A stretch of DNA of 64,000 bases from an uncultured Bacteroidales bacterium (GTDB taxonomy: Bacteria > Bacteroidota > Bacteroidia > Bacteroidales > Muribaculaceae): positions 4,155 to 68,154 of the forward strand of contig CACZAC010000015.1 in the NCBI GenBank assembly GCA_902779125.1. Reading direction: 5' to 3'. Below the pieces are notes generated by a model. It was not told where the DNA came from and did not search any database. It saw only the letters and a program-made list of their open reading frames with translations. Below, in pieces: positions 11,959 through 41,761 of the stretch (within the stretch, counting starts at the first letter, position 1; each line of letters begins with the position of its first letter). A program made the translations under genes and the position numbers.

Positions 11959-11989
11959 GAATTTTGAAACCTCATTTCATCTCACACCC

Positions 11990-16086: not shown

Positions 16087-16098
16087 ATTGATATATCA

Positions 16099-16695: not shown

Positions 16696-16706
16696 TTTAC
16701 TTGAAT

Positions 16707-19700: not shown

Positions 19701-19754
19701 AGATATAACAGAAATTGCATTCTTTACGTTCTCTAACTTTTGCTTATCTAACAT
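16707..19754 (-). CDS. Soluble atypical histidine kinase-like protein (H-box, GHKL ATPase, C-terminal pseudo-receiver)
   Basis: H-box AIMSRNMSHNLGSH; N-box FFTVLENFIRNSAKN; IIFYDN; EDKGLKEM; LGLLFTLPI; C-terminal RITIIDER...FLTIHLG...AVHSGRG. No TM segment. Confidence 0.75.
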   Translation of the reverse strand: MLDKQKLENVKNAISVISSEVGVAYCHFVEYDFQTSLETPRIKSVNYDIYAPKTYDDAKRIWMEGLASLKEYDNFQGTDLFYKNFTEELYFSGSNRISLCINGALDITASRPITIDVKRLHTPSNYEYYEIHLKVSKLISATYSIKTGVGKLSGQHQKFMAEVKNDLKKMPRILAFEKNDFENFDDEINEKFANHPDLLNAKDAIKMAILFTWPTTKNKIKYYAALIPPAFEICNEHGIKQITAGGIALFSNNSLTLSLSVFDCLQNWASIHTTKQLLNYSKSEAIKSAIAAIMSRNMSHNLGSHYLYYTKSYLEQKAADDGDVAPDIRGVAKVLGYLQSRMDFLATIISNDKYSYGPVNFKSQIFDELTVDDFSHRHFPEETNKRTTNFLLTNLIRSENFTRDDVKTDDENLRHENRLFLKVKYSNDGVVYRDFTGSWHENIISQEQGIKNDLSRLNLALPGGIMSSHAFFTVLENFIRNSAKNLREDVSEKDGLVFTIVIRPYSEPKKNHLDIIFYDNKRNANKYSDDNGCKTLFLDLCERLGRLEVIDKSNVLAKEDKGLKEMLLSTIWMRAYMFGENESFSDILTRINNEEDSMKKLDLIEYYGFKFVKVVEGEGVTGFRIYDRNNRIKHVESNSNLGLLFTLPIYQTCQQIKLTNDSSTNEHEMFNVMADVVEVKKTEQFIDVMCPDLRKVFTRVIEYDCGKKKSDLEKFRRAIKERFPDIDKYAICFMRDGEPPLCEPLYKSYLEEGVMGDNSNIQYRIYFKYHLDSKEKPGKKNKGLAYVDTVSGGNFTITLEELFKNAVKNGFNRDDHFKEEADELLALKIKESALTRITIIDERLFKTTKVKKNALEWLSLKNIRLLNFDENSDSTLGANEAALSRVFVGNSFNNYSNETHFLTIHLGLIEKILKNSRIVNAYINNLLNLDADQMLENKLSKDRIEAFMGMLKEYFGEDAFIAVHSGRGNSLSKDMNEALRLYPFVSLSALENAFNNSKFQLSQLLYNTIYMRKKS

Positions 19755-20410
19755 CTTTTCCTTCCAATAATATAACTGATTATTCGATTCCTATTTGTCA
19801 TATTCTCTATAAATGGAAAAATCCCTTTTTCCTCTATATAGAACTTTTCAACAAACAATTCCAGGATAGAGACGGCATAAGATTCTATTTTTGTTGTTTC
19901 AGATATTCTTTTGCCATCACTTTTAAACAAGTCATCCTCTTGTGTAAAATCCCCAAATAGCAATATACCGCCAGGTTTAACAATATTAAATAACTGATTC
20001 CTATATTCTCTCCAATCTTCTGGATCTATATGATGAAATATGCCCCAACAAATAACGCCATCAAATTCGTTATCATTAAACATTTTTTCCGGTTCTTTCG
20101 TCGGGAAAATGACCTTGTTTACATTAATGTTTTCATATTCTATACAATAATTAAGAGCATTATAGGACACATCATAATAGTAAACATCACAATATGAATA
20201 AGTATCTGCTATGTACTTACCTAATCTACCTGTACCACATCCATAATCCAAAATGCGAATAGTTTTTTTGTCGCCTATCTTGTCTACCAATCCATCCAGC
20301 AGATATTTTGGTAACGCAGTATTAACCCATGGCAGAAATGGAATAGAATCAATTTTTTCATAGACTCTCTCCCATGCATCATTTATTCGCTTTCTTCTAT
20401 CTATTAACAT
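19748..20410 (-). CDS. Class I SAM-dependent methyltransferase
   Basis: RILDYGCGTGRLG (motif I), YYDVS, FDGVICWGIFHHI, VKPGGILLF. Confidence 0.92.
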   Translation of the reverse strand: MLIDRRKRINDAWERVYEKIDSIPFLPWVNTALPKYLLDGLVDKIGDKKTIRILDYGCGTGRLGKYIADTYSYCDVYYYDVSYNALNYCIEYENINVNKVIFPTKEPEKMFNDNEFDGVICWGIFHHIDPEDWREYRNQLFNIVKPGGILLFGDFTQEDDLFKSDGKRISETTKIESYAVSILELFVEKFYIEEKGIFPFIENMTNRNRIISYIIGRKRC

Positions 20411-20432
20411 CAGTATAATAATATTAAAGAAA

Positions 20433-21500
20433 CTACTGATATTTTTTTAGTGTCAAAGAAGGTTTAATATCTCCATTCTTCGATATGTAATAGATATATT
20501 CAGAAGAAATCACCAATGAATCATTGTTTCTAATCTCATTAGATATTTGCTTCACATATATGCTCCCTTCTTGTGCCTCATTCAAATAATATGGTATTGA
20601 ATAAGCCAAGAAACATATAGACGAAAAATCAATATTATACCTGCTGCGTATTATATCATTTCTTTTTTTTGTAGAATCTGAATCACCTATCTTGTAATCA
20701 ATATATTCAACACCCTTGCCAGATTCTCCAGCAGCTGTCAAAACATCAGAACTGGTAAATCCTGTATTTGACAGAATAGGACCGTTATAACCTAAATCTC
20801 TTATTGATTTAATCAAGACACCTAGGGCTGAAGAAAAACCGATGGCAATAATACCATTGGGGTCTCTTTTTAATCCCTGTACTACTATATTTTTATAATC
20901 TGTATTTGACTCATCATATTTTATACTCTTTAATGCATCGTCTTTTTTTATAAGAGTTTCATTAAAAGGGATACCGTACTCAGTATTAGGATAGAACAAA
21001 ACTATTCTCTGATAATTACTCTTGTTAATCCCCTCAATGATTGCGTTGCTTTCATCTACAGAACTGTTGCCAATCTTAAAAATATTATATTCCCCTCCAG
21101 AAGTAATATCTGGATGTGATGCCACACAAAATAACAATTTATCATCTTTAATAACTACAGGTTTTAAAGCTAAAGAATATGCACTGCCAGCCGTCACAAA
21201 AATTGATACCCCATTTATAGTCTTAAGTTTATTGTAAGCATTAAGAACATTTCGCTGTTCGCTAGCGACATCTTCTACCAACAATTCATACTTAATGGGA
21301 TTATCTGCTTGGTTCAATTCTTCGATGGCCAACTCAAGACCAGCCTTCATTGACGTTCCTAGGCCGGCTTGATTTCCTGTCATAGGCAGTATAGCTCCAA
21401 TTTTAATAGTCTGACAGTCCTTTTTATTACAAGACTTATATCCAATAATCAAAGCTATGAAAATAAAAAACAGCAGTGCAATTAATTTAAACGCTTTCAT
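20433..21500 (-). CDS. ABC transporter substrate-binding protein, type 1 fold (LivK/LivJ-like)
   Basis: TIKIGAILPMTGNQAGLG...AGLELAIEELN...YELLVED, NTEYG, DYKNIV...DPNGI motifs; N-terminal membrane anchor. Confidence 0.9.
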   Translation of the reverse strand: MKAFKLIALLFFIFIALIIGYKSCNKKDCQTIKIGAILPMTGNQAGLGTSMKAGLELAIEELNQADNPIKYELLVEDVASEQRNVLNAYNKLKTINGVSIFVTAGSAYSLALKPVVIKDDKLLFCVASHPDITSGGEYNIFKIGNSSVDESNAIIEGINKSNYQRIVLFYPNTEYGIPFNETLIKKDDALKSIKYDESNTDYKNIVVQGLKRDPNGIIAIGFSSALGVLIKSIRDLGYNGPILSNTGFTSSDVLTAAGESGKGVEYIDYKIGDSDSTKKRNDIIRSRYNIDFSSICFLAYSIPYYLNEAQEGSIYVKQISNEIRNNDSLVISSEYIYYISKNGDIKPSLTLKKYQ

Positions 21501-22218
21501 ATTCTCTATTTTTAAACATTAGACTTTCAATTTCCGACAAGCTTAATAGCTCATCAACAAATACGTACAAAATTTTTCTATCCCCCATCATCATACACCT
21601 CTCACAGAACTTCACGGCCTTGGCGATGTTCTGTTCGATGAGGATGATGGTGACATTGAACTTTGCCCTGATATCACAGAGTATCTGGTACATCTCTTCT
21701 ACGGCTTTGGGTGAGAGACCAGCGCTAGGCTCATCCAGGATGACGAGGCGAGGGTTGGTAGCCAGGGTCATTGCTAGAGAAAGCTGATGCTTCTGTCCAC
21801 CGCTCAGTTTGTCTGCCATTGTGTGTTGCAGTTCCTTTTTGGAGCGCTGCAACATAGGGATGATGTTCTTGAGAACGTCAAGGGTATTGGAAGGCTGTCT
21901 GGACAGGGATAACTGCAGGTTATCCCATACCGATAAGTTCTTGAATACTCTGCCTCCCTGCTGCATAATTGAGATGCCACGATGAGATAGCTGGCTGGTT
22001 GTCAGCGAAGTGATGTCTTCACCTTCAAAGAAGATATCTCCCTTGCGGAAAGGTAGCATGTTCATGATGGCCTTTCCTAAGGTAGATTTACCCGAGCCAT
22101 TAAGGCCAATGATACCTACAGCTTCACCTTGCTGCACATCAATAGAGATGCCGCGGAGGATGTCGAATCCCTCCAGGTAGCCCCCCCACAGGTCATTGAT
22201 CTTCAGTATCTCGCTCAT
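21487..22218 (-). CDS. livF: HAAT-family ABC ATPase (LivF-like)
   Basis: GLNGSGKST, LSGGQ, LDEPSAGLSP, IEQN; family-level call. Confidence 0.88.
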   Translation of the reverse strand: MSEILKINDLWGGYLEGFDILRGISIDVQQGEAVGIIGLNGSGKSTLGKAIMNMLPFRKGDIFFEGEDITSLTTSQLSHRGISIMQQGGRVFKNLSVWDNLQLSLSRQPSNTLDVLKNIIPMLQRSKKELQHTMADKLSGGQKHQLSLAMTLATNPRLVILDEPSAGLSPKAVEEMYQILCDIRAKFNVTIILIEQNIAKAVKFCERCMMMGDRKILYVFVDELLSLSEIESLMFKNREYESV

Positions 22219-23000
22219 AAGCCCAAATAACTATTTCTCACATTTTTATCATCAAGCACCTCGGCTGTTGGACCAACTTTAGCAATGATGCCCTCATCAA
22301 GATATGCGCAGACATCGGCCACTTTACGGACAAAATGCATGTTATGTTCTATCAGCAGGACGGTCAGGCCCTCCTGTTCCTTCATCTCGCGGATTATCTG
22401 CTCAATAATTTCTATGTACATCGGATTAACACCTGATGTTGGCTCGTCAAGCAATAGCAGACGGTCTCCACCCATCAGCAATCGTGCAAGGGAGAGAATG
22501 CGCTGCTCTCCATAAGAGAACTCAGAGGCATCCTTATCAAGCATATTCAGATACTTGTTGTCTTGTCCGAAAATGCGTGTAAGAACCTCTCGCACCTGTA
22601 ATTCCTTCTGCAGCTCGGCTTTTTTCCATTTCTTCGGGAACAACAGCGATGAGAAGGGCATCTCACCGGTTGTATCGTCAGATGCCAACTTCATGTTTTC
22701 CATCAGAGTCAAACCACCCATTAGCTGGCCATCCTGAAACAAGCGTCCAATGCCCATCAGCGAGATGCGGTGAGCGGGGATGCGGTTGAAGTCATTGCCC
22801 TCGAATACCACCTCTCCAGTGTAGTTTTTCTCAAACCCCGAGATAATGTTGAACAAAGTAGTTTTTCCCGTGCCGTTACCACCAACAAGTGCAGTGATTT
22901 TGCCCTTCTCAACATCAAGGTTAACACCACGCAATAAGTCGAATGACTCGTTTTGGGCATTCGTGAAACTGATGCGTATGTCTTTCAGTTGCAAAATCAT
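22215..23000 (-). CDS. livG: HAAT-family ABC ATPase (LivG-like)
   Basis: GGNGTGKTTLFNIISG, RLFQ, FSYGEQR, LLLDEPTSGVNP, LIEHNM; family-level call. Confidence 0.9.
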   Translation of the reverse strand: MILQLKDIRISFTNAQNESFDLLRGVNLDVEKGKITALVGGNGTGKTTLFNIISGFEKNYTGEVVFEGNDFNRIPAHRISLMGIGRLFQDGQLMGGLTLMENMKLASDDTTGEMPFSSLLFPKKWKKAELQKELQVREVLTRIFGQDNKYLNMLDKDASEFSYGEQRILSLARLLMGGDRLLLLDEPTSGVNPMYIEIIEQIIREMKEQEGLTVLLIEHNMHFVRKVADVCAYLDEGIIAKVGPTAEVLDDKNVRNSYLGL

Positions 23001-23004
23001 ATCG

Positions 23005-23877
23005 CTACTTCATTATCGTTTTTCCCAAAAGACCTTGGGGGCGGTAATACATCACAAGAATCAGGGCCAGTCCGTAGATAATCTGCCTAAGATTGGCAGC
23101 AACGGAATCTGGCAACCCCACAAAACGGAGCAGCTCAGGCAATAACACAACAAACACGGCACCAAGAACGGGTCCTTTGGTATTGCCTATGCCACCTATA
23201 AACAACGCACTAAGGATAAAAATACTTTCGTCAAGCGTGAAACTGGTTGGGTCTATATAGCTAACATAAGACGCATAAATGATGCCTGCCAATCCTGCTA
23301 CGGCTGCCGATAGGAAGAAAGCAAGTGACTTAAACTTAACGATATTGCGTCCCATCGACTTCACTGTAATCTCATCGGCACGTATAGCATTCAGTACCCT
23401 GCCAAACGGAGACTCCACCAAATGGTGAAACAGAAAGACGACGACTGCCATGAGTACTAATGACAAAACGAGATAGGCATACACACCAGTGAGTTCAAAC
23501 ATCCCAAATAGTCTGATGCCAGGGATGCCCGGAATGCCGTATGGACCACGCGTTACATCTGTCCAGTTGTAAAGTATCGTATAAACAATCAGTTGGAATC
23601 CCATCGTAGCAATCACGAAATAGTCATCTTTCAACCTAACAGAAGCAAAAGAAACAAGGAAACTAAAAGCACCAGTAAACAACATCACCAGTGCAGCGAC
23701 CAAAAGAAACGGCAGATTGAACTGCATCAGGAAAAATGTTCCAATGTACGCACCGATACCATAGAATGCAGCCTGACACATGGTCAGCAAATTGGCCATG
23801 CCAATAGTCAAGTTCGCACTCAGTGTCAACATGATGTATATGTTGAGCATGATGATGATATGAAATACATACTCCAT
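23005..23877 (-). CDS. livM: HAAT-family ABC permease (LivM-like)
   Basis: QAAFYGIGAY, RLKDDYFVIAT, TRGPYGI, SPFGRVLNAIRADE, YIDPTSF, GGIGN..GPVLGA, RPQGL. Confidence 0.92.
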   Translation of the reverse strand: MEYVFHIIIMLNIYIMLTLSANLTIGMANLLTMCQAAFYGIGAYIGTFFLMQFNLPFLLVAALVMLFTGAFSFLVSFASVRLKDDYFVIATMGFQLIVYTILYNWTDVTRGPYGIPGIPGIRLFGMFELTGVYAYLVLSLVLMAVVVFLFHHLVESPFGRVLNAIRADEITVKSMGRNIVKFKSLAFFLSAAVAGLAGIIYASYVSYIDPTSFTLDESIFILSALFIGGIGNTKGPVLGAVFVVLLPELLRFVGLPDSVAANLRQIIYGLALILVMYYRPQGLLGKTIMK

Positions 23878-23878
23878 A

Positions 23879-24748
23879 CTACACAGTGCGTTGTTTATAT
23901 CCCGCTATGCCTTGAGGCCGCAAGAAAAGGAGAATAATCAAAACCAAGAACGTTACAGCGTTTTGCCAATTGGAAGCAAAATGATAGACCGTCAACGATT
24001 GCAGGACACCCAATGTCAGTCCGCCAAGGATACAGGTGCTGAACCTACCGACACCGCCTATAATCATCGCCACAACTGCACTGATTAGCACATTCATACC
24101 CATATTGGGGTCAAGACCTACATCATAGACAGTCAGGCAGCTGGCAAGGGCAATAAATACACCACTCACCAGAAACACGAGGACTCTAGTTTTTTTAGTA
24201 TCGTAACCCAGTGTCTCAAACAAAGTCTCGTCGGCACTCAATGCTCTCAACCTCAAACCCCAATTGGTGCGTTGCAACAATACCATGAAGATAATCAGTA
24301 CCGTAATACCTATCAAGGCCTGATACTTTTGAGGGGAAGTGATGATAATATCCCCAAAAGTCAACGGTTGCAGAATAGAGTTATCTATCACCTTGGTTTC
24401 GTTGCCAAAAAACATGGCAATGGTGTTGATAATGACAGTCATCGCACCAATGGAGGCTATCATTGCCACATTGAGTGAGGCCTTTTTGTTTTTCAACGGC
24501 CGATATATAAGCACTTCAGTCAAAAGACTGAGCAGCATGGTCAACACTAATGCGACAAGAGAGGCAGGAATGACAGGCAGCCCTACACTAGCTACAAAAA
24601 ACCAGAACATATAGGCCGCAAACACATATATACCGGCTGCAGCTATATGGAATATCTTAGTCGTATTAAACACCAAGGCAAACCCTATCGCCAACAGCGA
24701 GTAGAGGATTCCAGTTATTAATCCATTTATGACAAATTGCCAAATCAT
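23879..24748 (-). CDS. livH: HAAT-family ABC permease (LivH-like)
   Basis: NGLITGILYSLLAIGFALVF, FHIA, IYRPL, TNWGLRLRA, IIGGVG, RPQGI; ATG at 24748. Confidence 0.92.
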   Translation of the reverse strand: MIWQFVINGLITGILYSLLAIGFALVFNTTKIFHIAAAGIYVFAAYMFWFFVASVGLPVIPASLVALVLTMLLSLLTEVLIYRPLKNKKASLNVAMIASIGAMTVIINTIAMFFGNETKVIDNSILQPLTFGDIIITSPQKYQALIGITVLIIFMVLLQRTNWGLRLRALSADETLFETLGYDTKKTRVLVFLVSGVFIALASCLTVYDVGLDPNMGMNVLISAVVAMIIGGVGRFSTCILGGLTLGVLQSLTVYHFASNWQNAVTFLVLIILLFLRPQGIAGYKQRTV

Positions 24749-24771
24749 CAAATTCTTTTTGATTGTAATTG

Positions 24772-24779
24772 CAAAAGTA
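24772..24779 (-). promoter_or_regulatory. Bacteroidetes primary-sigma -7 box heading the livH...membrane-protein operon
   Basis: Minus-strand TACTTTTG (TAnnTTTG consensus) 24 nt upstream of the livH ATG. Confidence 0.7.
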
Positions 24780-25213
24780 TATAAAAAATACCGTTTTTTT
24801 ACTCTATGAACGGAAAAAAGACAAAAAAAGCATATTTTATTGTTTATTTCTTTTTTATAAGACTATGGTTACTCCTCTTCACTATAACAGATACATTGAG
24901 CACATGGCCAGTATTATACTTTAATTATATGAAAGCGAGAGCCTTTCCTCATTATCGGACAACGTGAAAGTAGTCAAAAAGGTAGCAAATCATCCCCAAA
25001 AACCATGAAAAAAAGTGTAAAAGAAAGAGGGTACAGAAATCATGGGTATAAACCGAGTAATATGTGAGGCCGGGCAAGATACAAATTCATAAATTAAAGA
25101 TAGAGACTAATAAAAAGCAAAGAAATCTTCAGTATTATGCAATAATTCAATAAAATGTTGTACCTTTGTGATGATTACTTGAATTGATGACTATTTGATA
25201 AAACGAAATATTT

Positions 25214-26833
25214 ATGAGGCACTATCTGAAGAATCTAGAAGACACTGTGCGCCAGCATTGGACCCAAAAAGCCTTGTGTGACTACAACGGCGACTCTTTT
25301 ACCTATGCACAGCTGGCTATCAACGTTGAGCGGTTCCGCATCTTTTTCTCTGCTGTCGGCATCGGCAAAGGGGATAAAATCGCTATTTGCGCCCGCAACA
25401 GCGCCCGCTGGGCGATGACCTTTTGGGGAATCAATGTCAATGGCTGTGTGGCGGTTCCGCTGCTGTCCGACTTTCATCCTAGCACGGTTTCCACCCTCAC
25501 CAACCATTCTGACAGCGTTCTGCTCTTTGTCGACGATGACATCTGGACAAAAATGAACCCTGACGAGATGCCTAACCTCAAGGCGGCCATCAATGTCAAG
25601 GACGGCAACCTGCTGTGGCACCAGGATGAGGATGTGGCTAGTGCCTGGAACAACCGCAAGGCAGCATTCACACAACAATATCCCAACGGAATGTATCCCG
25701 AGCAGGTGTCCTATCCCGGCGACAATGGTGATGACCTGGCCATCATCAACTACACGTCAGGAACCACGGGCAACCCCAAGGGCGTGATGCTCACCTATAA
25801 CGCCATGTCCGATACCGACGATTTCGCGAACAGGCATTTCCCGAACACTCCCGGTCAAACGATTGTTTCAATGTTGCCCCTGGCTCACATGTACGGATTG
25901 GCTATCGAGTTCATCCATCCTAACGTCGATGGAGTGACCGTTTATTTCCTGGGCAAGACTCCATCGCCCACCACCCTGCTCAAGGCAATGAAGGACATCA
26001 AGCCCTATATGGTGGTCACGGTGCCCCTGGTAATGGAGAAAATCTATGCCAATGCCATCAAACCGGCGCTTGAGAAGGCGAAATCCTTACTGGCCATTCC
26101 CGGACTGAACAAACTGATTTACCGCAAAGCCCGCAACAAGGTGATTGAGGCTTTTGGCGGGAGCGTGGAATGCTTCATCATGGGTGGCGCTGCGCTCAAC
26201 CCTGAAGCCGAACAGTGCTTCAAGAAGATTCGCCTGCCCTACACGGTGGGCTATGGCATGACCGAAGCCTGCCCGCTGCTGGGTTATGAGTGGTGGACCA
26301 AATTTGTGCCTGGATCTTGCGGGAAAGCCGTCCATGAGCTGCGTATCGACTCCGATGACCCGCAACATATACCAGGAGAAATCCAAGCCAAGGGTCCCAA
26401 CCTCACCATCGGCTATTATAAGAATCCCGAAGCCACTGCTGCGGCTTTCACCGAGGACGGATGGTTCCGCACCGGTGACCTGGGCATTATAGACGCTAAG
26501 GGCAACATTTTCATCCGTGGACGCATCAAGTCGATGATTCTGAACTCCTCGGGCCAAAACATCTACCCCGAAGAGGTTGAAGCCGTCTTGGCCAACTGCC
26601 AGTATGTGGATGAGTGCCTGGTAGTGGACCGCGACGGGAAAATCACAGCACTCATCTACACCGAATTCCCCGAGGACATGGACGAGGCGACCAAGGCTGC
26701 TATCCCTGGACAAATCCGCGACGAGGCCAACAAGTCCCTACCCGCTTACAGTAAAATCACAAAAGTGGAGATGAAGGCAGAACCCTTCGAAAAAACACCG
26801 AAGAGAACCATCAAACGCTTCCTCTATCAATAA
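25214..26833 (+). CDS. Long-chain fatty acid-CoA ligase (AMP-binding family)
   Basis: YTSGTTGNPKGV, YGMTEACP, GWFRTGDLG, GRIK, GQNIYPEEVE, KTPKRTIKR. Confidence 0.93.
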   Translation: MRHYLKNLEDTVRQHWTQKALCDYNGDSFTYAQLAINVERFRIFFSAVGIGKGDKIAICARNSARWAMTFWGINVNGCVAVPLLSDFHPSTVSTLTNHSDSVLLFVDDDIWTKMNPDEMPNLKAAINVKDGNLLWHQDEDVASAWNNRKAAFTQQYPNGMYPEQVSYPGDNGDDLAIINYTSGTTGNPKGVMLTYNAMSDTDDFANRHFPNTPGQTIVSMLPLAHMYGLAIEFIHPNVDGVTVYFLGKTPSPTTLLKAMKDIKPYMVVTVPLVMEKIYANAIKPALEKAKSLLAIPGLNKLIYRKARNKVIEAFGGSVECFIMGGAALNPEAEQCFKKIRLPYTVGYGMTEACPLLGYEWWTKFVPGSCGKAVHELRIDSDDPQHIPGEIQAKGPNLTIGYYKNPEATAAAFTEDGWFRTGDLGIIDAKGNIFIRGRIKSMILNSSGQNIYPEEVEAVLANCQYVDECLVVDRDGKITALIYTEFPEDMDEATKAAIPGQIRDEANKSLPAYSKITKVEMKAEPFEKTPKRTIKRFLYQ

Positions 26834-27239: not shown

Positions 27240-27767
27240 TCATTGGTCTGGAAGAGTTTTCTTGTACTTCTGATACACTTTTTTCAACTGTTTGTCAATC
27301 TCATTGATGGGACGGTCGAGTTCTTTTAACTTCACTTCGTAACGAAGGGTGTTCTCGGGGTCCGTCTTTTCATGATATTTCACGATGAACTTAAGCGTGG
27401 GAATGCGAAATTCTAAGACAGTCTTGAACCTCACTTGTTCACAGTCAGCAAAGGGTATCGTTGTGGCCAAGCCGTCATTGTCGTAGAAGACGAAGAAGTC
27501 AGCGCCGACGGCAAATGCGGGTATACCGTGGCGGGCTTTATCGGTCCTTCGGAAATTTTCGACAGTAGACAGTATCGTGCCAAGTGTAATCAGGCCATAG
27601 ACAATGATTATCACGTAGCCATGCCAGTCATCAAACAGGAACGACAGGTCCCAATGGGCAAAGCAGAACACACCGAGAGCGACCAAAGCCACTGACAGTA
27701 TCACGTAGGCGACCGCCTTCGATGTCGCCAACCCCTTCCGGTAATAGTATTGATGTAATATCTCCAT
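27240..27767 (-). CDS. Hypothetical membrane protein (2 TM plus PH-like soluble domain)
   Basis: 175 aa, two hydrophobic helices followed by a beta-rich domain. Confidence 0.7.
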   Translation of the reverse strand: MEILHQYYYRKGLATSKAVAYVILSVALVALGVFCFAHWDLSFLFDDWHGYVIIIVYGLITLGTILSTVENFRRTDKARHGIPAFAVGADFFVFYDNDGLATTIPFADCEQVRFKTVLEFRIPTLKFIVKYHEKTDPENTLRYEVKLKELDRPINEIDKQLKKVYQKYKKTLPDQ

Positions 27768-27867
27768 AACTATAAGTTTTTTATAACCGTGCCACGAGGG
27801 ACTTATAAGGTCCCATCCATTCTATCACATATAATTTTATTATCTCTGACATATTAAGAAAATATTG

Positions 27868-27950
27868 TTGCCTGGTTAGCTTGGCTCTCCAGGGTTGGAT
27901 AAGGCAATGTACGCCCCTGTTGTGGTGGTCGAGTACGTCGGCAGTGCCTT
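27868..27950 (-). pseudogene. Decayed, frameshifted copy of the comM 3' tail (relic C)
   Basis: Reads GTADVLDHH then, after a frameshift, IALSNPGEPS, versus [23 protein letters not shown] in intact comM. Confidence 0.7.
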
Positions 27951-27958
27951 GTTCGCGG

Positions 27959-27991
27959 ATGCTATCAGAAATCTCAGATGAATCAGTTGTT
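27959..27991 (+). repeat. 33-bp direct repeat, copy 1
   Basis: atgctatcagaaatctcagatgaatcagttgtt, identical to 28276-28308. Confidence 0.95.
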
Positions 27992-28227
27992 GAAATTCCT
28001 TAGAGGTCGGCGATGGTGCAGGCGACTTTGAAGTAAACGCGGCAGTAATTTCAAGATTGCCACAGTTGGAGATATATCTACATCTATTTGCAGCTTTATC
28101 AAGATAAAACAACAATAGTTTATCATAATAAACATTCTAAAAAACTGATAACAAATATCTTGTCTCTTTTATGCAAGATAGCTTAAAAATCCCACTGCTT
28201 ATCCATATTCTTGACATATAAAGTCCA

Positions 28228-28257
28228 TTGGTAGAGCATCAGCTTCCCAAGTTGGGG
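28228..28257 (+). pseudogene. tRNA-Gly(CCC) fragment (D-loop plus anticodon arm)
   Basis: ttggtagagca-tcagc-tt-CCC-aa-gttgg-gg; no acceptor stem or T-arm nearby. Confidence 0.65.
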
Positions 28258-28275
28258 ACTGAAGGTTAGACCTGA

Positions 28276-28308
28276 ATGCTATCAGAAATCTCAGATGAAT
28301 CAGTTGTT
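28276..28308 (+). repeat. 33-bp direct repeat, copy 2
   Basis: Identical to 27959-27991. Confidence 0.95.
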
Positions 28309-28370
28309 TGCTAGAAAGTTGTTCCCGTTGATGTTCTGTTGTCACTGTTATTTGACAGGGTGCACAGGCT

Positions 28371-28508
28371 CGGATTCATCGAGGCAACGAGCATAAACGA
28401 CACAGGATACTCGGTCGAATATTTCGCCCTACTGATGCTTATAATCCTGTCCTCCAGCGGCTGTCGCATCACCTCCAACACATTTCTAGAAAATTCAGGC
28501 AATTCATC
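28371..28508 (-). pseudogene. Internal comM fragment starting at the Walker-B Asp (DELP...MNP)
   Basis: 46 codons, 43/46 aa identical to intact comM 34099-34236, with many synonymous changes. Confidence 0.92.
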
Positions 28509-28609
28509 CACGTGGAAAGACTTGCCCCATTGCAACAGCCTCATTGCCAACCATAAAGTCCCCAAAAACAACCAAAACATGTACCATAAAACCATTCACA
28601 ACCACAAAG
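28498..28609 (-). repeat. About 112-bp repeat copy 1: non-comM end sequence fused to comM DELP codons (att-like junction)
   Basis: About 84% identical (18 differences counted by hand) to 29616-29726. Confidence 0.85.
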
Positions 28610-28706
28610 ATAAATGTTTCTAAAACACAAAGACACAAATCATTACATCAAAAGAATCGTTCCTTTTATCTTATTGATGTATCATTGTTAAGTTTGGGCT
28701 TTTTAC

Positions 28707-29426
28707 TTATTTTGTTTTGTTCTTGTTTACCCAATTCACCGACTTATATACATACCGCCCTGTAAGGAACACACATAGAATTATTAATATGGAATACCAT
28801 GAATTTTTCTTTAATTCATTTTCATAACCATCCAACCTATATGAATTTATCATTGAATTCCACTCTGCTTGGCCTTTTTCAATTTCTTGCTTTTTCCATT
28901 GTTCTTTTTCTTGCTCAGTCATGATTGTATAATGTCGAAAATAGGGTTCTGCACTCACCTTGTTGCCATTTTCATCCAATATGATCTCCCCTTTATGACG
29001 TTCAAGATTCTTTTTTTCAATTGCAATCAACTCTTTGAATTTACTTTCTGCATCATCCTCATTAAGAACGTAGTTACCAGTTATCAATTCTGGATCATAA
29101 CAACTTGCCCCAAATGGTAATTCAGGTGAACGCTTTGTATCATTTGAACGATAAACAACATAACCAGCCATATACAGGCCCCATAAAAGAAGTGCAACAA
29201 ACAATAGTTTACTTATGGCAACCATTTCATCAGCAAATGCGCTTTTGTTCTTTTGTACCTCTTTTTCCATTTCAGGTTTGTGCATATCAAGGACATCCTC
29301 TTTGACCTTAATATCGTTCTTTTTTTGCAGCTTCTCTTCAACTATATCAAGATCCTGTTTCGCACCACAATACTTGCAAAACATAGAATCTGCCGCTATC
29401 ACTTTTCCGCACTTTTTACAAAACAT
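28707..29426 (-). CDS. Zinc-ribbon membrane protein
   Basis: MFCKKCGKVIAADSMFCKYCG (double CxxC), two TM helices, AT-rich. Confidence 0.8.
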   Translation of the reverse strand: MFCKKCGKVIAADSMFCKYCGAKQDLDIVEEKLQKKNDIKVKEDVLDMHKPEMEKEVQKNKSAFADEMVAISKLLFVALLLWGLYMAGYVVYRSNDTKRSPELPFGASCYDPELITGNYVLNEDDAESKFKELIAIEKKNLERHKGEIILDENGNKVSAEPYFRHYTIMTEQEKEQWKKQEIEKGQAEWNSMINSYRLDGYENELKKNSWYSILIILCVFLTGRYVYKSVNWVNKNKTK

Positions 29427-29593
29427 AATGAACCTAATGATTATTGCTTTGCAAATATAGGAAAACTATTATATTCAAGTGTCATGATTATTGAAAATTG
29501 CTAAGATTTGGCATTTTTTATATGGATTCAAGTGCCAAATTTATCGAAAAATACATTGATTTGCCACTCAAATAATCTAAAGAAATTACACTT

Positions 29594-29726
29594 TTCCAAG
29601 ATTTGATTAAATATAGGCAGCTCATCCAAGTGGAACGACTTGCCCCATTGCAATAGCCTTAGAGTTAACCACAAAGTCCCCAAAACGACCCAAATATGTA
29701 CCATAAAGCCATTCACAATTACAAAG
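29594..29726 (-). repeat. Repeat copy 2: the same end sequence fused to a short comM DELP fragment (DELPIFNQILE)
   Basis: Junction gcaatggggcaagtcgttccact-tggatgagctgcc; matches 28498-28609. Confidence 0.8.
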
Positions 29727-29864
29727 TTATTTACAATTCTCAAAAATATCAAAAAAAATAACTAAATTTGCAATTAGGAAACACTACAGTTATTTCTAAC
29801 TGTATCTCATTATTAAATATTAAAATAATCTAAATTTGATAATAATAACGTAAGAAATACACAT

Positions 29865-31322
29865 ATGAATAGCCCCAAAGTATTTATATCTTATAGTTGG
29901 AGTAGTCCTGAGCATGAGCAACGGGTCCTTGATATCGCAACAGAGCTTGCTGAAAATGGCGTTGATGTAATTCTTGACAAATGGGACCTAAAAGAAGGTG
30001 ATGATGCTGACGCATTTATGGAACAGATGGTTGCAAATCCTGAGATACAAAAAGTCCTCATCATTTGTGACAAGAAGTATTCTGAAAAATCAGACAAAAG
30101 AACTGGGGGTGCTGGTACTGAAGCACAAATAATTTCGCGAAAAATATATGAACAGACAGATGAGGGAAAATTTGTAGTTGCTGCTTTCGAGATGAATGAA
30201 GAAACAGGTAAACCATACCTGCCGACTTACTATGGGTCTCGAAAATATATAGACTTTACAGATTCAAACAAATATGCGACAAAATTTGAGGAGCTGATCC
30301 GCTGGATTTTCAATAAGCCATTATACGTAAAACCTCAATTGGGCAGGGTACCAGATTACATATTATCTGAAGAAAAAAAGTCGTTAGGAACAACAGCTAC
30401 ATACAGACGTGCTAAATCGTTTATTTTAGAAGGTCGCTCTAACGCTTCTGGTGCAGTACGCGAATACTTATCCCGATTTTCTTCCAATTTATCTGCGTTT
30501 CAACTCCCATCCTATAAGAATGGTGAAAATTTCTATAATCAAGTAATTGATAATATCAATGAATTTGCACCTTATAGGGAGGAGTGGCTTGATATTTTAC
30601 ACTCAGTTTGTAACAATGGTTTATTAGTTGATGTAATGAATGACTATATTAGATTCTTTGAAGATATACACCAATATACTTTCCATCGAACTGCTATTAG
30701 TCATCCCTATCAACAAGAGGAAGATAATATGAAGTTCATCGAATATGAACTGATGCTATGCTTTGTTGCGCTTTTACTCAGGAAAGAGTGCTTCAAAGAA
30801 GTATCAATTATTCTAGAAGGGACATTTTATAACAAATATTCATCCTCGGAAAATGAGGCTACTTATAATTATTGTGTCTTTAATCACTACTTGTATTCAC
30901 TACACAATCAAAATAAAAGAAGATCTAATCCATATTATTCATTGCAAGCGAAAATTTTCTATGATCGAATGGCATCGTGCACATACTTAGATATTACTGA
31001 TATCTGCCAAGCGGACTTCGTTTGTTGGTTGTATTATCTAGGGCATCCTGAAAATAATATCTTATCTGTGCATAGATGGTATCCCCATAACTTGTTGTAT
31101 GCATGCAATATGAGACGACCATTTGAAATATTCGCAAGAGCCGAATCTTTACGTTATTTGGATTCAATGAAAGTCGTTTTTGACTACAACACTAAAGACG
31201 ATTTCATAAAATTGTACAATTCTATAATGGAAAACAGAGATTCTATTATTCCAAGATGGGAATTTGAAACTCCGAATATCAAATTACTTATGAATATAGA
31301 TAGATTGGGAACTAGAAAATAG
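29865..31322 (+). CDS. SEFIR/TIR-domain protein with a large helical C-terminus
   Basis: PKVFISYSW, LAENGVDVILDKWDLKEGDD..AFMEQMV, KVLIICD..Y, GGAGTEAQII, KYIDF; AT-rich. Confidence 0.88.
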   Translation: MNSPKVFISYSWSSPEHEQRVLDIATELAENGVDVILDKWDLKEGDDADAFMEQMVANPEIQKVLIICDKKYSEKSDKRTGGAGTEAQIISRKIYEQTDEGKFVVAAFEMNEETGKPYLPTYYGSRKYIDFTDSNKYATKFEELIRWIFNKPLYVKPQLGRVPDYILSEEKKSLGTTATYRRAKSFILEGRSNASGAVREYLSRFSSNLSAFQLPSYKNGENFYNQVIDNINEFAPYREEWLDILHSVCNNGLLVDVMNDYIRFFEDIHQYTFHRTAISHPYQQEEDNMKFIEYELMLCFVALLLRKECFKEVSIILEGTFYNKYSSSENEATYNYCVFNHYLYSLHNQNKRRSNPYYSLQAKIFYDRMASCTYLDITDICQADFVCWLYYLGHPENNILSVHRWYPHNLLYACNMRRPFEIFARAESLRYLDSMKVVFDYNTKDDFIKLYNSIMENRDSIIPRWEFETPNIKLLMNIDRLGTRK

Positions 31323-31466
31323 TGCAAAGACAATTTATAACATTAAAAATCTTCAGAAAGCTTACGACGTGAGGAATAAACAGAGTCGATACTCTTGTAA
31401 TCTTATTAATAATTACGATGCAGAAATTGGATAAACTTATTTAATTTTGCAAAAAATTATATCGCT

Positions 31467-32102
31467 ATGAAGAGATACTTATTGATTTCACTGATTGTGT
31501 TATTTTCTTTGGGTGATCAAGCTCAAGGATTTGATGGTATAGGGAAGTTACACCTTGATATGACCTTGAATGAAGTTCGTGGCCTATTTCCTCAAAAACT
31601 TGTTAAACAGTATGATGTTTCCACGTTTAAGAAAGTATATAAATTAAACTCATACACCCCTATCAAAGGGCATACTTTCAGAGATATTCATTTATATTTT
31701 TATAATGACACGTTGTACGCAATTTATGTGAATAATTCAAATTACCAAATAGAGCAATCTTTATTTACAAAATATGGGAAGCCTAAAGATAAGATTCATC
31801 GATTCAGATCATATATCGAAGAATTGATCTCTATATATGGATACGATTCAGCAGATTTTGTTGATGATTCAAAAGCTGGCAAATGGGATATAATTGATAC
31901 TTTTTATGAATGGAATCTAGATAATCCACTCCATAAATGCTTATTAGTTGATTGTTTATATTACGATAGACAAGGTAAATCACAATTGGATTATTTACTA
32001 ATTATAAAAAATACTGCATTTGCAGAGTGCGTGTCTTTAGAAGAAAAATTACTTGAAAGAGAGAAACAATCTGAGCCAGTAGAAGGTTTGGAGGGATTAT
32101 GA
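31467..32102 (+). CDS. Secreted hypothetical protein
   Basis: Signal peptide MKRYLLISLIVLFSLG; AT-rich; FDGIGKLHLDMT N-terminal motif. Confidence 0.7.
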   Translation: MKRYLLISLIVLFSLGDQAQGFDGIGKLHLDMTLNEVRGLFPQKLVKQYDVSTFKKVYKLNSYTPIKGHTFRDIHLYFYNDTLYAIYVNNSNYQIEQSLFTKYGKPKDKIHRFRSYIEELISIYGYDSADFVDDSKAGKWDIIDTFYEWNLDNPLHKCLLVDCLYYDRQGKSQLDYLLIIKNTAFAECVSLEEKLLEREKQSEPVEGLEGL

Positions 32103-32248
32103 TGTTTTATTAATATCGGAAATATAATTATTAAAGAAACATGTATAGGTTCTTTTGATGTTTAATTCCAATCACGATCTTCATCTTTAAGAGTACATCC
32201 AAAACACATGTAGCAGCGATTTAAATGCATTTTTTGCATTCTTAATTT

Positions 32249-32359
32249 TAGCGTACTGCCCATATAGCTTGGGCGGTCGATGTTGAGGTAGGCGATGGCC
32301 TCCATGATGTGGTGGTCGAGGACGTCGGCGGTGCCTTCGAAGTCGGAGATGATGCGGGC
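32249..32359 (-). pseudogene. comM 3' tail copy (relic B)
   Basis: In-frame [36 protein letters not shown] versus [36 protein letters not shown]; GC-rich island in AT-rich DNA. Confidence 0.9.
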
Positions 32360-32408
32360 ATAATCGTTCTAATCCCCAAATTTATCAAAATTCAGGGAAT
32401 ATAGAGGT

Positions 32409-32589
32409 CTATAAACTACTGCCGAGGTAGGTGGGGCGGTCGAGGTTGCGGTAGGCGATAGCTTCCATGATGTGGTGGTCGAGGACGTCGGCGCAGGCCT
32501 CGAGGTCGGCGATGGTGCGGGCGACTTTGAGGATGCGGTCGTAGGCGCGGGCGGACATGTTCATGCGTTCCATGGCGTCTTTCAGTTTC
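32409..32589 (-). pseudogene. comM 3' tail copy with its own stop codon (relic A)
   Basis: In-frame [59 protein letters not shown], a near-identical allele of the last ~60 codons of comM. Confidence 0.95.
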
Positions 32590-32667
32590 CTAACCTGGAT
32601 TAGACTGATGGGAGTATACTAAAAGTTGTTATTACTTGAGGTTCCTCTTTCTGTAACGGATGATTTA

Positions 32668-33480
32668 TTAATGTTCATGATTATTAAGAGTTTGATTATC
32701 TAAGTCCATTGATATAAGTGTTTCCACTATAGTTTTGGCTTTTTCCTTGGGAGAGACTATATTACACACATTTAGAATATTCTTATTGTGTATACTGATA
32801 GGGATTCTTTCATCAGCTATTTTATCTATTATGACTGGTAATACACGAGAAGAATCAATTTCCCAAGCAAACTCTAGCTCTTTAACCGTATATGTGAGTA
32901 ATTTGCTACTTAAAAGGCATATAAAATACCCGTTACTCAGCGTTGACTCTATTGACATCCTCGCAAGAAAACTCCAATTAACATTTGCTGAAACATCTAA
33001 ATAATAGTCCATGTCCCATGCATGAAATCCATACTTTAAACATTCTGATTCAAGTTCTTTGGCTAAAGAACGGTCCATATTGTTATAGCTAATAAACACA
33101 CTTGTTCTACGTCTGAAAGGTTTTATAAGGTTCAGCACATCCTTATCTATTTCAGGGCTATTGATTTCAATTTGAGAAATATCCACAATCTCGTACATGC
33201 GTTTTTTGGATTGAATGTAGTTGACTTCGGACTGTACATACTTTGACGCTTGTGCATTAGGGCTATCGCATAGAATAAAGCGACTACGGGCATCAATTTC
33301 CTTTTTTATAAGCTCATTGATTTCTTCTTCGTCTTCCATGCATTTCAAATAAAAAAGTATTGGACGGAAACCATTATTTTCAAGAGCGTTTCTTACTAGC
33401 CGTACCCGATCAAAGTCCTTTGTTGAGTGTGAAATAAATACCCAAAATCCTTCTTCAAAAATATTTTCTTCTTTTTGCAT
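32668..33480 (-). CDS. Tandem TIR-TIR domain protein
   Basis: TIR1 WVFISHSTKD...FILCDSPNAQASKYVQSEV; TIR2 SVFISYNNMD...FICLLS...VKELEFA; both keep a Glu at the catalytic position. Confidence 0.85.
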   Translation of the reverse strand: MQKEENIFEEGFWVFISHSTKDFDRVRLVRNALENNGFRPILFYLKCMEDEEEINELIKKEIDARSRFILCDSPNAQASKYVQSEVNYIQSKKRMYEIVDISQIEINSPEIDKDVLNLIKPFRRRTSVFISYNNMDRSLAKELESECLKYGFHAWDMDYYLDVSANVNWSFLARMSIESTLSNGYFICLLSSKLLTYTVKELEFAWEIDSSRVLPVIIDKIADERIPISIHNKNILNVCNIVSPKEKAKTIVETLISMDLDNQTLNNHEH

Positions 33481-33603
33481 ATATCGAAACTCTTAATCTA
33501 AAAAACACCATTTTCTAATTACAATGATAAATGGAAATTCTAACGAGAATAGGGATGGTTCTGACGATGATATTATGATATAAGTGAATGTTTTGGAATT
33601 ATC

Positions 33604-35151
33604 TCATATAGAGTTGCCGAGGTAGGTGGGGCGGTCGAGGTTGCGGTAGGCGATGGCTTCCATGATGTGGTGGTCGAAGACGTCGGTGGTGCCTTCGAGG
33701 TCGGCGATTGTGCGGGCGACTTTCAGGATGCGGTCGTAGGCGCGGGCGCTCATGTTCATGCGCTCCATGGCGTCGCGAAGTTTCTCCAGGCCGGCGGCGT
33801 TGGGCTCGGCGTATTTGTGCAGGAGGGATGGGGTCATCTGGGCGTTGCAGTGGATGCCGGGTTCGTCCTTGAAGCGGCGCTCTTGGAGCATCCTTGCGGC
33901 GATGACGCGCTGACGGATGGCGGCGCTGGGTTCGCCTGGGGCCTTGCTGGACATCTGGTCGAAATCGACGGGCTGGACTTCGATCTGCAGGTCAATGCGG
34001 TCCAGCAACGGGCCCGAAATCTTGCTCATGTAGTGGGTGCGCTGGTACTCGTTGCAGACGCATTTCTTCTTGGGGTGCCCATAGTACCCGCACGGGCAAG
34101 GATTCATGCTCGCCACAAGCATGAATGAGGCTGGGTATTCGGTTGAGTATTTCGCCCTCGAAATCGAAATTATCCTGTCCTCCAACGGCTGGCGCATCAC
34201 TTCCAAAACGGAGCGATTGAATTCTGGCAGTTCATCAAGAAAGAGGACGCCGTTGTGCGCCAGGCTGATTTCCCCGGGCATGGGGAAACTGCCACCACCG
34301 ACGAGGGCGACGGGCGAGATGGTGTGGTGCGGGCTGCGGAAAGGACGCACGGTCATCAACGTGGTGCCTTGGGGCAGTTTGCCCGCTACGCTGTGGATTT
34401 TGGTGGTTTCGAGCGCCTCGCTCAGCGTGAGCGGCGGCATGATGGACGGCAGTCGCTTCGCCATCATCGACTTACCAGAGCCCGGGCTGCCCACCAGCAG
34501 GATGTTATGCCCTCCGGCACAGGCGACCTCGAACGCGCGTTTCACGTTCTCCTGTCCCTTGACATCGGCGAAATCGTAGGGGAAAACGCCCTGTGCTTTG
34601 GCAAATTCGGCACGGGTATCCACGACAGTGGGCGTGAGTGAGATGTCGCCGTTGAGGAACTGCACCACCTCGACGAGGTTATCCACGCCATAGATGTTGA
34701 GGTTGTTGACTACAGCGGCCTCCATAGCGTTGGCACGCGGAACGATAAAGCCGTCAAGATGCAGTTCACGCGCCAGGATTGCCATGGGCAGAGCGCCCTT
34801 GATGGGCCGCAGACTGCCGTCGAGCGAGAGTTCGCCCATGAGCATATAACGGTCCAACTTGTCAGTGCTGATTTTCTCGTCACCCGCCAGGATGCCCACC
34901 GCCAGCGGCAGGTCATAGGCCGAGCCTTCCTTCTTGATGTCGGCAGGCGACATATTGATCATCACCTTCTTGCCCGGGAAATTGAAGCCCGTCTGCTGCA
35001 TGGCGCAACGCACGCGCTCGGCGCTCTCCTTGACTGCCGTGTCGGGCAGTCCGATAACCATAAACCCTGAGCCCCAGTCCACTGTCACCTCAATCTCGAC
35101 GCGGATGGCGTCGATGCCTTGCACGGCTGCTGCTATCGTTCTCGCTAACAT
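33604..35151 (-). CDS. comM: ComM/YifB Mg-chelatase-like AAA+ ATPase (competence helicase family)
   Basis: [93 protein letters not shown]. Confidence 0.97.
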   Translation of the reverse strand: MLARTIAAAVQGIDAIRVEIEVTVDWGSGFMVIGLPDTAVKESAERVRCAMQQTGFNFPGKKVMINMSPADIKKEGSAYDLPLAVGILAGDEKISTDKLDRYMLMGELSLDGSLRPIKGALPMAILARELHLDGFIVPRANAMEAAVVNNLNIYGVDNLVEVVQFLNGDISLTPTVVDTRAEFAKAQGVFPYDFADVKGQENVKRAFEVACAGGHNILLVGSPGSGKSMMAKRLPSIMPPLTLSEALETTKIHSVAGKLPQGTTLMTVRPFRSPHHTISPVALVGGGSFPMPGEISLAHNGVLFLDELPEFNRSVLEVMRQPLEDRIISISRAKYSTEYPASFMLVASMNPCPCGYYGHPKKKCVCNEYQRTHYMSKISGPLLDRIDLQIEVQPVDFDQMSSKAPGEPSAAIRQRVIAARMLQERRFKDEPGIHCNAQMTPSLLHKYAEPNAAGLEKLRDAMERMNMSARAYDRILKVARTIADLEGTTDVFDHHIMEAIAYRNLDRPTYLGNSI

Positions 35152-41250: not shown

Positions 41251-41761
41251 CGCCCTCACGCTAAGCCGCAAAGACGCAAAGTATATAATATGGAAAACAA
41301 CAAGCACAACAAATACAAAGCGGATGCCATATATAAATCTTAGCGGCTTTGCGTCTTGGCGTGAAGCAAATCGGGTGCGGAGCCCCTCTAAACCCTAAAC
41401 TCTAAACCCTAAACTGCGAGCGCAGCGAGCATCACGCGCCTTAGCGTGAGGCAAATCGGGTGCGGAGCCCCTCTAAACTCTTAACCCTAAACTGCGAGCG
41501 CAGCGAGCATCACGCGTCTTGGCGTGAGGCAAATCGGGTGCGGAGCCCCTCTAAACCCTAAACTCTAAACCATAAACTGCGAGCGCAGCGAGCATCACGC
41601 GTCTTAGCGTGAGGCAAATCGGGTGCGGAGCCTCTCTAAACTCTAAACTCTAAACCCTAAACTGCGAGCGCAGCGAGCATCACGCGTCTTAGCGTGAGGC
41701 AAATCGGGTGCGGAGCCTCTCTAAACACTAAACCCTAAACTGCGAGCAACGCGAGCATCAC
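41251..41761. repeat. Inverted-repeat element followed by five tandem 78/85-bp units
   Basis: Units start at 41351, 41436, 41514, 41599 and 41684 (85, 78, 85, 85, 78 bp); they differ by one (c/t)ctaaac-type heptamer. The IR pair cacgctaagccgcaaagacgcaaag / ttagcggctttgcgtcttggcgtg spans 41257-41363. Confidence 0.92.

Follow-up and report, generated by a model that had tools for sequence, protein, structure and literature searches.

We analysed a stretch of 64,000 nucleotides (the window) from an uncultured Bacteroidales bacterium of the family Muribaculaceae (assembly GCA_902779125.1, contig CACZAC010000015.1, positions 4,155 to 68,154), in which an intact comM gene is followed by an array of small gene cassettes separated by displaced pieces of comM. 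An earlier note on the same DNA had proposed that this locus takes up cassettes repeatedly at the 3' end of comM without disrupting the gene, and the comparison with relatives agreed with it, as their loci shared the architecture and carried almost entirely different cargo. From these comparisons we hold it probable that small cassettes, many with defence genes, accumulate in the region behind comM, and that homologous recombination between copies of the comM 3' part brings about their exchange. This reading is carried by the architecture of the arrays and their restriction to a single genus, the turnover of cargo, the position of recent breakpoints in comM pieces, the rise of synonymous identity towards the comM 3' end and the lack of linked recombinases. 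The locus itself is real and dynamic, and the evidence for its mechanism is comparative throughout.

comM and its displaced pieces in the window

Searches with comM, repeat searches and Pfam revealed that all features listed in the earlier note are present in the window, with small corrections of extent. The anchor gene, its displaced pieces and the two copies of a leader sequence (L) are the following.

33604-35151, minus strand: intact comM, a competence gene for a YifB/ComM-type Mg-chelatase-like AAA+ ATPase, 515 amino acids (aa), anchor of the array; Pfam ChlI (PF13541), Mg_chelatase (PF01078) and Mg_chelatase_C (PF13335)
32412-32594, minus strand: relic A, comM tail aa 455-515, with its own stop codon
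32249-32359, minus strand: relic B, comM tail aa 479-515
29609-29729, minus strand: leader copy L2, a 'solo' L after which comM sequence is limited to the codons DELPIF; the zinc-ribbon gene lies about 180 nt downstream in the same orientation
28512-28612, minus strand: leader copy L1, a conserved non-coding module that begins TATCTTTG and ends against the DELP codons
28362-28511, minus strand: comM mid piece, aa 305-354, Walker B to MNP, 50 codons
27959-28308, minus strand: segment bounded by perfect 33-nt direct repeats (27959-27991 = 28276-28308)
27915-28047, minus strand: relic C, comM tail aa 472-495, in two bits split by an insert of about 46 nt

The cargo genes and the gene that flanks the array on its far side are listed below.

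32668-33480, minus strand: TIR-TIR protein, 270 aa, cargo of cassette 1; co-oriented with comM, beginning 123 nt past the comM stop
31467-32102, plus strand: secreted protein, 211 aa; antisense to comM, in the same cassette as the bSEFIR gene (29865-32102)
29865-31322, plus strand: bSEFIR-type defence protein (SEFIR/TIR), 485 aa; Pfam SEFIR/TIR_2; antisense to comM
28707-29426, minus strand: zinc-ribbon protein, 239 aa, cassette cargo; Pfam Zn_Ribbon_1; putative membrane protein, judging from its hydrophobic stretches
27240-27767, minus strand: membrane protein gene, 175 aa; conserved, marks the distal end of the locus
25214-26833, plus strand: AMP-binding (acyl-CoA ligase-type) gene, identified by Pfam; core flank past the array

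When the window was searched with comM itself, all four displaced pieces were found to be oriented as comM. Relic A matched comM at 92.5% nucleotide identity over 32420-32579 (blastn, E 1e-63) and at 85% amino-acid identity over 32412-32594 (tblastn, E 2e-28), and relic B at 86.4% over 32257-32359 (E 5e-30) and 67.6%, respectively. The mid piece showed 88% amino-acid identity (E 1e-22) and 72% nucleotide identity to the comM of the window, compared with 91% nucleotide identity to the comM of a congener (G022). Its 3' end is the MNPCPC site, at which the comM-like piece of phage ANDSL2_ph1 also ends. Relic C is the oldest comM tail piece in the window array. The insert that splits it includes one copy of the perfect 33-nt direct repeat, and old relics in several species carry the sequence of this repeat too, likewise after aa 486 of comM. 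The identity of the pieces drops with distance from comM, as had been described for the tail copies, although the bits of relic C are too short for ranking. The island is also set apart by its GC content, which is 31-42% from comM down to about 28000 and 52-59% in the flanks. A tRNA fragment inside the repeat-bounded segment was considered and was unsupported by ARAGORN or Rfam.

A sequence of about 120 nt occurs twice in the window (28491-28612 and 29609-29729), ending both times on DELP. Its non-comM part, L, is about 115 nt long and adjoins the Walker-B codons (DELP) of the comM piece. The earlier note had listed the comM fragments; L as a distinct unit had been missed, as had the position of the main junction, which lies at codon 305 and not in the tail. 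The fragment that had been read as 46 codons from DELP to MNP is present and comprises 50 codons, and the sequence that had been taken for a DELP fragment is a second leader copy followed by DELPIF alone.

Distribution of the arrays and recent exchanges between strains and species

All 41 relatives searched contained comM. Extra comM 3' pieces were found in 15 of the 24 same-genus genomes (uncultured rumen Muribaculaceae), together with the variable cargo that the earlier note had expected of such a comparison, and in none of the 16 genomes from other families of the order. Second comM copies were rare in other genera of the family (~6 of ~185 genomes, within a sample of 200 family genomes). 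An exact-pattern scan for L across 185,579 species genomes returned 14 contigs, all from rumen or gut Bacteroidales metagenome-assembled genomes (MAGs) labelled Muribaculaceae, Sodaliphilus or 'uncultured Prevotellaceae', and all with comM or comM pieces. The ~35 loci that we mapped had one layout: comM, cargo, L with a comM piece from codon ~305, more cargo and further pieces. In a group of more distantly related congeners, the junction lay instead at codons ~270-281 and came with a short conserved leader unlike L. Shorter comM pieces start around codons 455-460 or 476-480.

The cargo was highly variable, as 171 candidate open reading frames fell into 122 clusters, in a set that includes some unrelated flanking genes. 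Annotated cargo in relatives comprised SIR2-like, GmrSD, Schlafen/AlbA ATPase, DUF4143 and archaeal-type ATPase proteins, a Panacea-domain antitoxin, a DUF4062-TPR protein and a radical-SAM enzyme. The view of the locus as a site of defence accretion holds for much of the cargo, the bSEFIR protein among it; BspA-type leucine-rich repeat (LRR) surface proteins, a LytTR regulator and a hydrolase were also present and are not defence genes. Distal relics containing the 46-nt insert were common to several species, as was the terminal membrane gene (76-81% nucleotide identity in L034, L053 and L061 and 97% in a sister strain), and the proximal cassettes were strain- or species-specific. The sharing of distal relics supports the polar age order that had been proposed, with the oldest scars farthest from comM. 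The AMP-binding gene occupied the same flank position in L034, L038 and L088. Several MAG contigs (G007:C18, G013:C21, G016:C18 and G024:C41) end a few hundred to a few thousand bases past comM. The comM repeats probably break short-read assemblies, and array prevalence is likely underestimated owing to broken assemblies.

The contig of the sister strain (L088), from an independent metagenome assembly, was compared with the window. The two were 97.3% identical over 9 kb through the flank, comM (98.6% identical), the TIR-TIR gene and relic A, and 97.1% identical over a second block of 2.9 kb from relic C through the membrane and ligase genes. Between these blocks L088 carries 3.9 kb that differ from the window, with a 565-aa gene, L joined to comM aa 297-515, and a DUF4143 ATPase. 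Relic A contains the left breakpoint, within its last ~10 nt, and relic C the right one.

A second exchange involves a unit of 2.74 kb that consists of a comM tail, a LytTR gene, an alpha/beta-hydrolase gene and a tail relic. Its copies are located as follows.

L035, 101-2842: LytTR-hydrolase unit
L050, 356-3097: LytTR-hydrolase unit
L051, 4104-6847: LytTR-hydrolase unit

The unit of G015 was 99.0-99.2% identical to those of G020 and G012, and the latter two were ~92% identical to each other. The comM genes of G015 and G020 share ~74% of their nucleotides, those of G020 and G012 both being ~25% different from that of G015. The unit adjoins the comM copy in G020 and G012 and lies behind other cassettes in G015. 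Its proximal and distal tail copies are mosaic, and the edges of the high-identity blocks lie inside the tails at positions that vary by genome. These results indicated a very recent inter-species transfer of the LytTR-hydrolase pair as a 2.7-kb unit without a mobility gene. In addition, L038 and L063 have 1.46 kb in common at 99.1%, with the start of the block inside a tail relic.

All five located breakpoints of recent exchanges fell in sequence derived from comM, a minor part of the array, and they were not at one fixed nucleotide. Breakpoints that lie within comM repeats at variable positions are the signature of homologous recombination between repeats. Of the two drivers that the earlier note had put forward, homology-anchored recombination is thus better supported than a recombinase acting in trans, and no recombinase is linked to any array.

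The comM gene itself carries a corresponding footprint. When 11 intact comM genes from close species were compared, third-codon identity was ~0.45-0.75 up to aa 345 and reached 0.90-0.94 in the last 35 codons, and patches of 97-98% identity were scattered over the 3' half. The displaced pieces kept the ComM amino-acid sequence nearly unchanged, with third positions 59% identical. A protein sequence that is kept while third positions diverge indicates that the pieces diverged inside working genes of different species before they were displaced. Both the 3' rise in identity and the divergence of the pieces fit repeated replacement of the comM 3' part with crossovers spread along the gene. Codons 306-315, where synonymous identity is the lowest in comM (0.45), follow DELPEF and exist in two forms, NRSV and SRNV, whose codons differ strongly. 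Both forms are found in intact genes as well as in displaced copies, and recombination may have maintained an old dimorphism here.

We propose the following mechanism. The mobile unit would be a comM 3' segment, the cargo, in some cases the leader, and a second comM 3' segment. Both flanks of the cargo would then be homologous to one target gene, and recombination with a genome that has comM only would insert the cargo, either through a single crossover of an excised circle formed between two repeats or through two crossovers of linear DNA. A full comM would be rebuilt from the 5' part of the recipient and the 3' part of the donor, and the old 3' part of the recipient would be stranded behind the cargo. 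Repetition would place the newest cassette next to comM and leave older comM pieces to decay distally, while recombination between any two comM pieces could replace or delete interior cassettes. The agent would presumably be RecA-type recombination, the DNA would arrive by transformation, conjugation or transduction, and L would serve mainly as a promoter or leader for the downstream sequence rather than as a recombination site. Site-specific elements that have since been lost may have created the first junctions, at codons ~305, ~270-281, ~455 and ~480 and at the MNPCPC cut.

As for the cargo of the window, the product of 29865-31322 is a predicted bSEFIR single-gene anti-phage system. In the PADLOC search that had been suggested earlier, it matched the bSEFIR model PDLC03957 (E 3.3e-102, residues 1-484), and Pfam placed a SEFIR domain at its N-terminus (E 1.7e-17). 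Compared with this known system, the protein is a full-length model match with an N-terminal SEFIR/TIR domain, and no difference was noted. An 85% identical copy of 1.6 kb of the secreted/bSEFIR cassette region was present in another comM array (L054). The TIR-TIR protein contains Pfam TIR_2 in two stretches (E 5e-23) and gave a weak ThsB-like PADLOC match. Thoeris consists of ThsB, a TIR protein, with a ThsA effector of the SIR2 or Macro/SLOG type; the window array contained no SIR2 or SLOG protein, and its ThsB-type matches were weak. A 99% identical TIR-TIR copy occupied the same comM position in the sister strain. Homologues with 55-67% identity (L081-L085 and L090-L093) sit within multi-gene loci of other metagenomes, where their neighbours are a TIR-WD40 protein beside RT-Cas1/Cas2 or large DUF4062/NACHT-like TPR proteins. 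We rejected the TIR-TIR gene as a cassette that travels among comM arrays, as the homologues examined, the sister copy aside, lay in unrelated multi-gene defence loci. The lone TIR-TIR protein of the window may be an orphan component of a larger system.

Two further differences were observed outside the array. The stretch 11966-25110 (~13.1 kb, with an ABC-transporter/kinase operon) is absent from the sister strain, in which 25111 is joined to 11965 with ~230 nt between them; it is a second strain-variable island in the window. At 41435-41761, the window holds a tandem array of ~85-nt units, which the first 117 nt of L088 match four to five times at 86-99% identity.

The leader, the search for a recombinase and competing explanations

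We compared 26 distinct copies of L from relatives, all of which had the same sharp 5' edge, with unrelated sequence upstream of it (33% identity). The mean identity of L was 75-80%, compared with 59% at the third codon positions of the adjoining comM piece, and L showed no codon periodicity, the three positions scoring 0.81, 0.87 and 0.80. It holds internal direct repeats (GGCTTTATGG twice) and, near the junction, an imperfect palindrome TTGC-N6-GCAA. The start of L, TATCTTTG, fits the -7 promoter box TAnnTTTG, which is the Bacteroidetes consensus known from Bacteroides promoter studies, and a co-oriented gene often lies downstream. We infer that L is probably a promoter or leader module maintained by selection. 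It may also be a protein recognition site, a possibility raised by its conservation above that of neutral sites, the lack of codon periodicity and the sharp edge in the 26 copies.

Other identities of L were considered and rejected. As a structured RNA it had no Rfam match and no covariation, and no convincing attC-type hairpin emerged from 22 copies in RNAalifold (-12.4 kcal/mol, covariation term -0.68). As a coding N-terminal extension of a truncated ComM it often had an open frame, but periodicity was lacking, start codons were unconserved and several copies had frame-breaking indels. As diverged comM upstream of DELP it was contradicted by the finding that the apparent tblastn extensions were spurious. 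As part of a phage or viral attP it failed on two counts: the L pattern had no match in 2.9 million viral contigs, and none of the comM pieces in the phage collection was of the L type.

The absence of a recombinase from the array, as stated in the earlier note, was confirmed. The five cargo proteins of the window had no match to recombinase families in Pfam, and no tyrosine or serine recombinase was placed elsewhere on the contig. Among 36 scanned cargo and flanking proteins, of which the window supplied 5, relatives 20 and L088 its called genes, recombinase or transposase families were not detected. Genome-wide profile searches of 16 genomes, including that of the window, placed no tyrosine (PF00589) or serine (PF00239) recombinase on any comM contig. 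The PF00239 matches were confined to resolvases of ~220 aa on other contigs in 8 of the 16 genomes; half of the genomes had no serine recombinase of any kind, and arrays were present in such genomes too. We found no IntI-type recombinase adjacent to the array in the window genome (G000) or 15 relatives. A 358-aa gene beside comM in G005 had been a candidate IS200-type transposase and was dropped, having no Pfam match.

Among the alternatives, one that we judge unlikely is that a site-specific recombinase encoded elsewhere, Xer-type or another tyrosine enzyme, moves the cassettes in an integron-like or Xer-exploiting manner, with L as the cassette site and the Walker-B region of comM as the chromosomal site. 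The non-coding nature of L, its conservation at the nucleotide level, its sharp edge, its GGCTTTATGG repeats and its palindrome are what such a site might show, and the 26 copies adjoin the same comM codons. Two Xer-like recombinases are present in every genome, and the confinement of the arrays to one genus is as a lineage-specific enzyme would predict. However, the mapped recent exchanges break inside comM tails at variable positions and not at L, many cassettes are bounded by tail pieces without L, and in 'solo' copies of L the comM homology was lost at different nucleotides. L was found solely at this locus in the window's own genome, which leaves no attI-like copy near any recombinase gene. 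It also has no conserved hairpin or covariation, and among more distant congeners both the junction and the short leader are different.

Another explanation, which we rate as quite unlikely, is that the arrays are a graveyard of self-mobile elements (prophages or integrative elements with a large serine or tyrosine integrase) that targeted comM and carried a replacement comM part, the integrase having been deleted later and the cargo and att scars left. A precedent exists in Acetoanaerobium phage ANDSL2_ph1 (PP197248.1, 15550-17710; L086), whose comM-like open reading frame covers comM aa ~170-356, from Walker A to MNPCPC, and ends against the 3' end of a convergent 546-aa integrase gene, the size of a large serine recombinase. 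This region is a clear example of a phage attP built from comM sequence. The mid piece of the window and several others end at aa 354-356, the same MNPCPC site; the 5' junctions lie at codons 305, 270-281, 455 and 480, and the recent breakpoints vary. The large serine recombinase family PF07508, however, was absent from all 11 genus genomes searched and occurred in 15 of the 201 genomes examined from the family; none of the 14 family loci that were fetched had L or a comM piece nearby, and large serine recombinases were therefore rejected as the agent. The comM contigs of the 16 genomes carry no integrase of either class, and L is lacking from the viral contigs. Furthermore, recombinase-free units of 1-2.7 kb moved between species very recently (99% identity), and the interior of the array differs between strains that are 97% alike. 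Integrase-bearing elements may have made some of the old junctions, and they are not the current driver in this genus.

It is also conceivable, if rather improbable, that L and the comM 3' half form a gene-capture platform, in which a portable homology arm is combined with a module of ~115 nt that a host factor recognises for excision, circularisation or targeting, and cassettes home into comM, the competence-helicase gene, of naive genomes without an element-encoded recombinase. If the leader were such a recognition site, it would represent a new kind of gene-capture device. That the fragments are assembly artefacts or scars of one large decayed insertion is extremely unlikely, for although repeats do disturb assembly and several MAG contigs end just past comM, the same proximal structure (comM, TIR-TIR and relic A) was reproduced in the independent sister-strain contig, arrays were present in ~30 other assemblies from different studies, the pieces differed in age (92% down to 72% identity) and in closest relatives, and the distal relics were common across species while the proximal cassettes were not.

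Several points weigh against homologous recombination between comM copies as the full explanation. The 5' limits of the comM pieces cluster at codons ~305, ~270-281, ~455-460 and ~476-480, which recalls site-specific events. The conservation of L (75-80% against 59%), its lack of periodicity and its sharp 5' edge would be unexpected for a purely passive junction. The first placement of new cargo between a comM tail and L lies outside the account that the model gives. The circular intermediate, the transfer vehicle and natural competence are hypothetical; homologues of ComEC and DprA are present, but these proteins also occur in non-competent bacteria, so that their presence is no evidence of competence.

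Comparison with known systems

Defence islands are usually explained by integrase-bearing elements or by swapping between conserved flanks. The comM locus points to a third route, in which a duplicated piece of the anchor gene travels with the cassette, so that ordinary recombination would add cassettes serially, leave the anchor intact and shuffle the stack between strains and species. This would give a testable account of how defence islands grow without a recombinase, and it would account for the breaks behind comM in metagenome assemblies of these rumen bacteria. With the leader and the comM pieces as sequence handles, variable and defence-rich cargo can be mined from uncultured Muribaculaceae. 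A text search of the literature, in which queries for comM were swamped by 'community', returned no description of comM-anchored cassette arrays in Bacteroidales.

The locus had been called integron-like, which holds as an analogy only. As in integrons, small and mostly promoter-less cassettes build up serially and in a polar manner, with the newest nearest the anchor. In contrast to integrons, there is no IntI, attI or hairpin attC, the orientation of the cassettes is mixed and what is repeated is a piece of the anchor gene itself. The insertion of Tn6022/AbaR-type elements into comM, which had been cited as a parallel, is not relevant at this locus.

Phages with large serine recombinases are reported to target Mg-chelatase/comM-type genes, among them the Wolbachia WO phages. 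The comM prophages of this type (WO sr1 and ANDSL2_ph1) share with the arrays the choice of comM as target and the cut at MNPCPC, which is the 3' end of several pieces. They differ in being complete phages that split comM, whereas here comM is intact and the units measure 1-4 kb and contain no integrase.

Tandem islands at tRNA genes are known as tycheposons in Prochlorococcus. Similarly, ssrA-specific islands of Dehalococcoides stand in tandem at the tmRNA gene (PMC3146451). The comM arrays resemble these islands in the repeated insertion at the 3' part of one gene, the restoration of that gene and the presence of degenerate units that contain cargo only; direct repeats of the target 3' part lie between the islands, as in the tandem arrangement. 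The tandem islands encode a serine or tyrosine recombinase and use a fixed site, whereas no recombinase was found in the ~35 arrays and their breakpoints vary. Moreover, the target here is a protein-coding gene, of which up to 630 nt are carried along.

In its working, the site is like systems in which cassettes are exchanged between conserved genes. In the minimal mobile elements of Neisseria, whole-gene cassettes lie between conserved genes without mobility genes, and their exchange is ascribed to homologous recombination in the flanks. The core defence hotspots of Pseudomonas aeruginosa likewise hold variable cassettes between conserved genes, and their exchange has been ascribed to homologous recombination in the flanks (PMC10250203). 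The comM arrays share with both the variable, often defence-related cassettes, the absence of mobility genes from the region and the homologous exchange: relatives carry unrelated cargo and no mobility genes between comM and the membrane/AMP-ligase genes, and the breakpoints lie inside conserved homologous sequence at variable positions. We know of no displaced-fragment arrays described for minimal mobile elements or core hotspots. In the arrays behind comM, by contrast, displaced gene fragments and a conserved leader mark the junctions, and the comM 3' homology is duplicated and travels with the cassette, which would allow serial addition and not only swaps.

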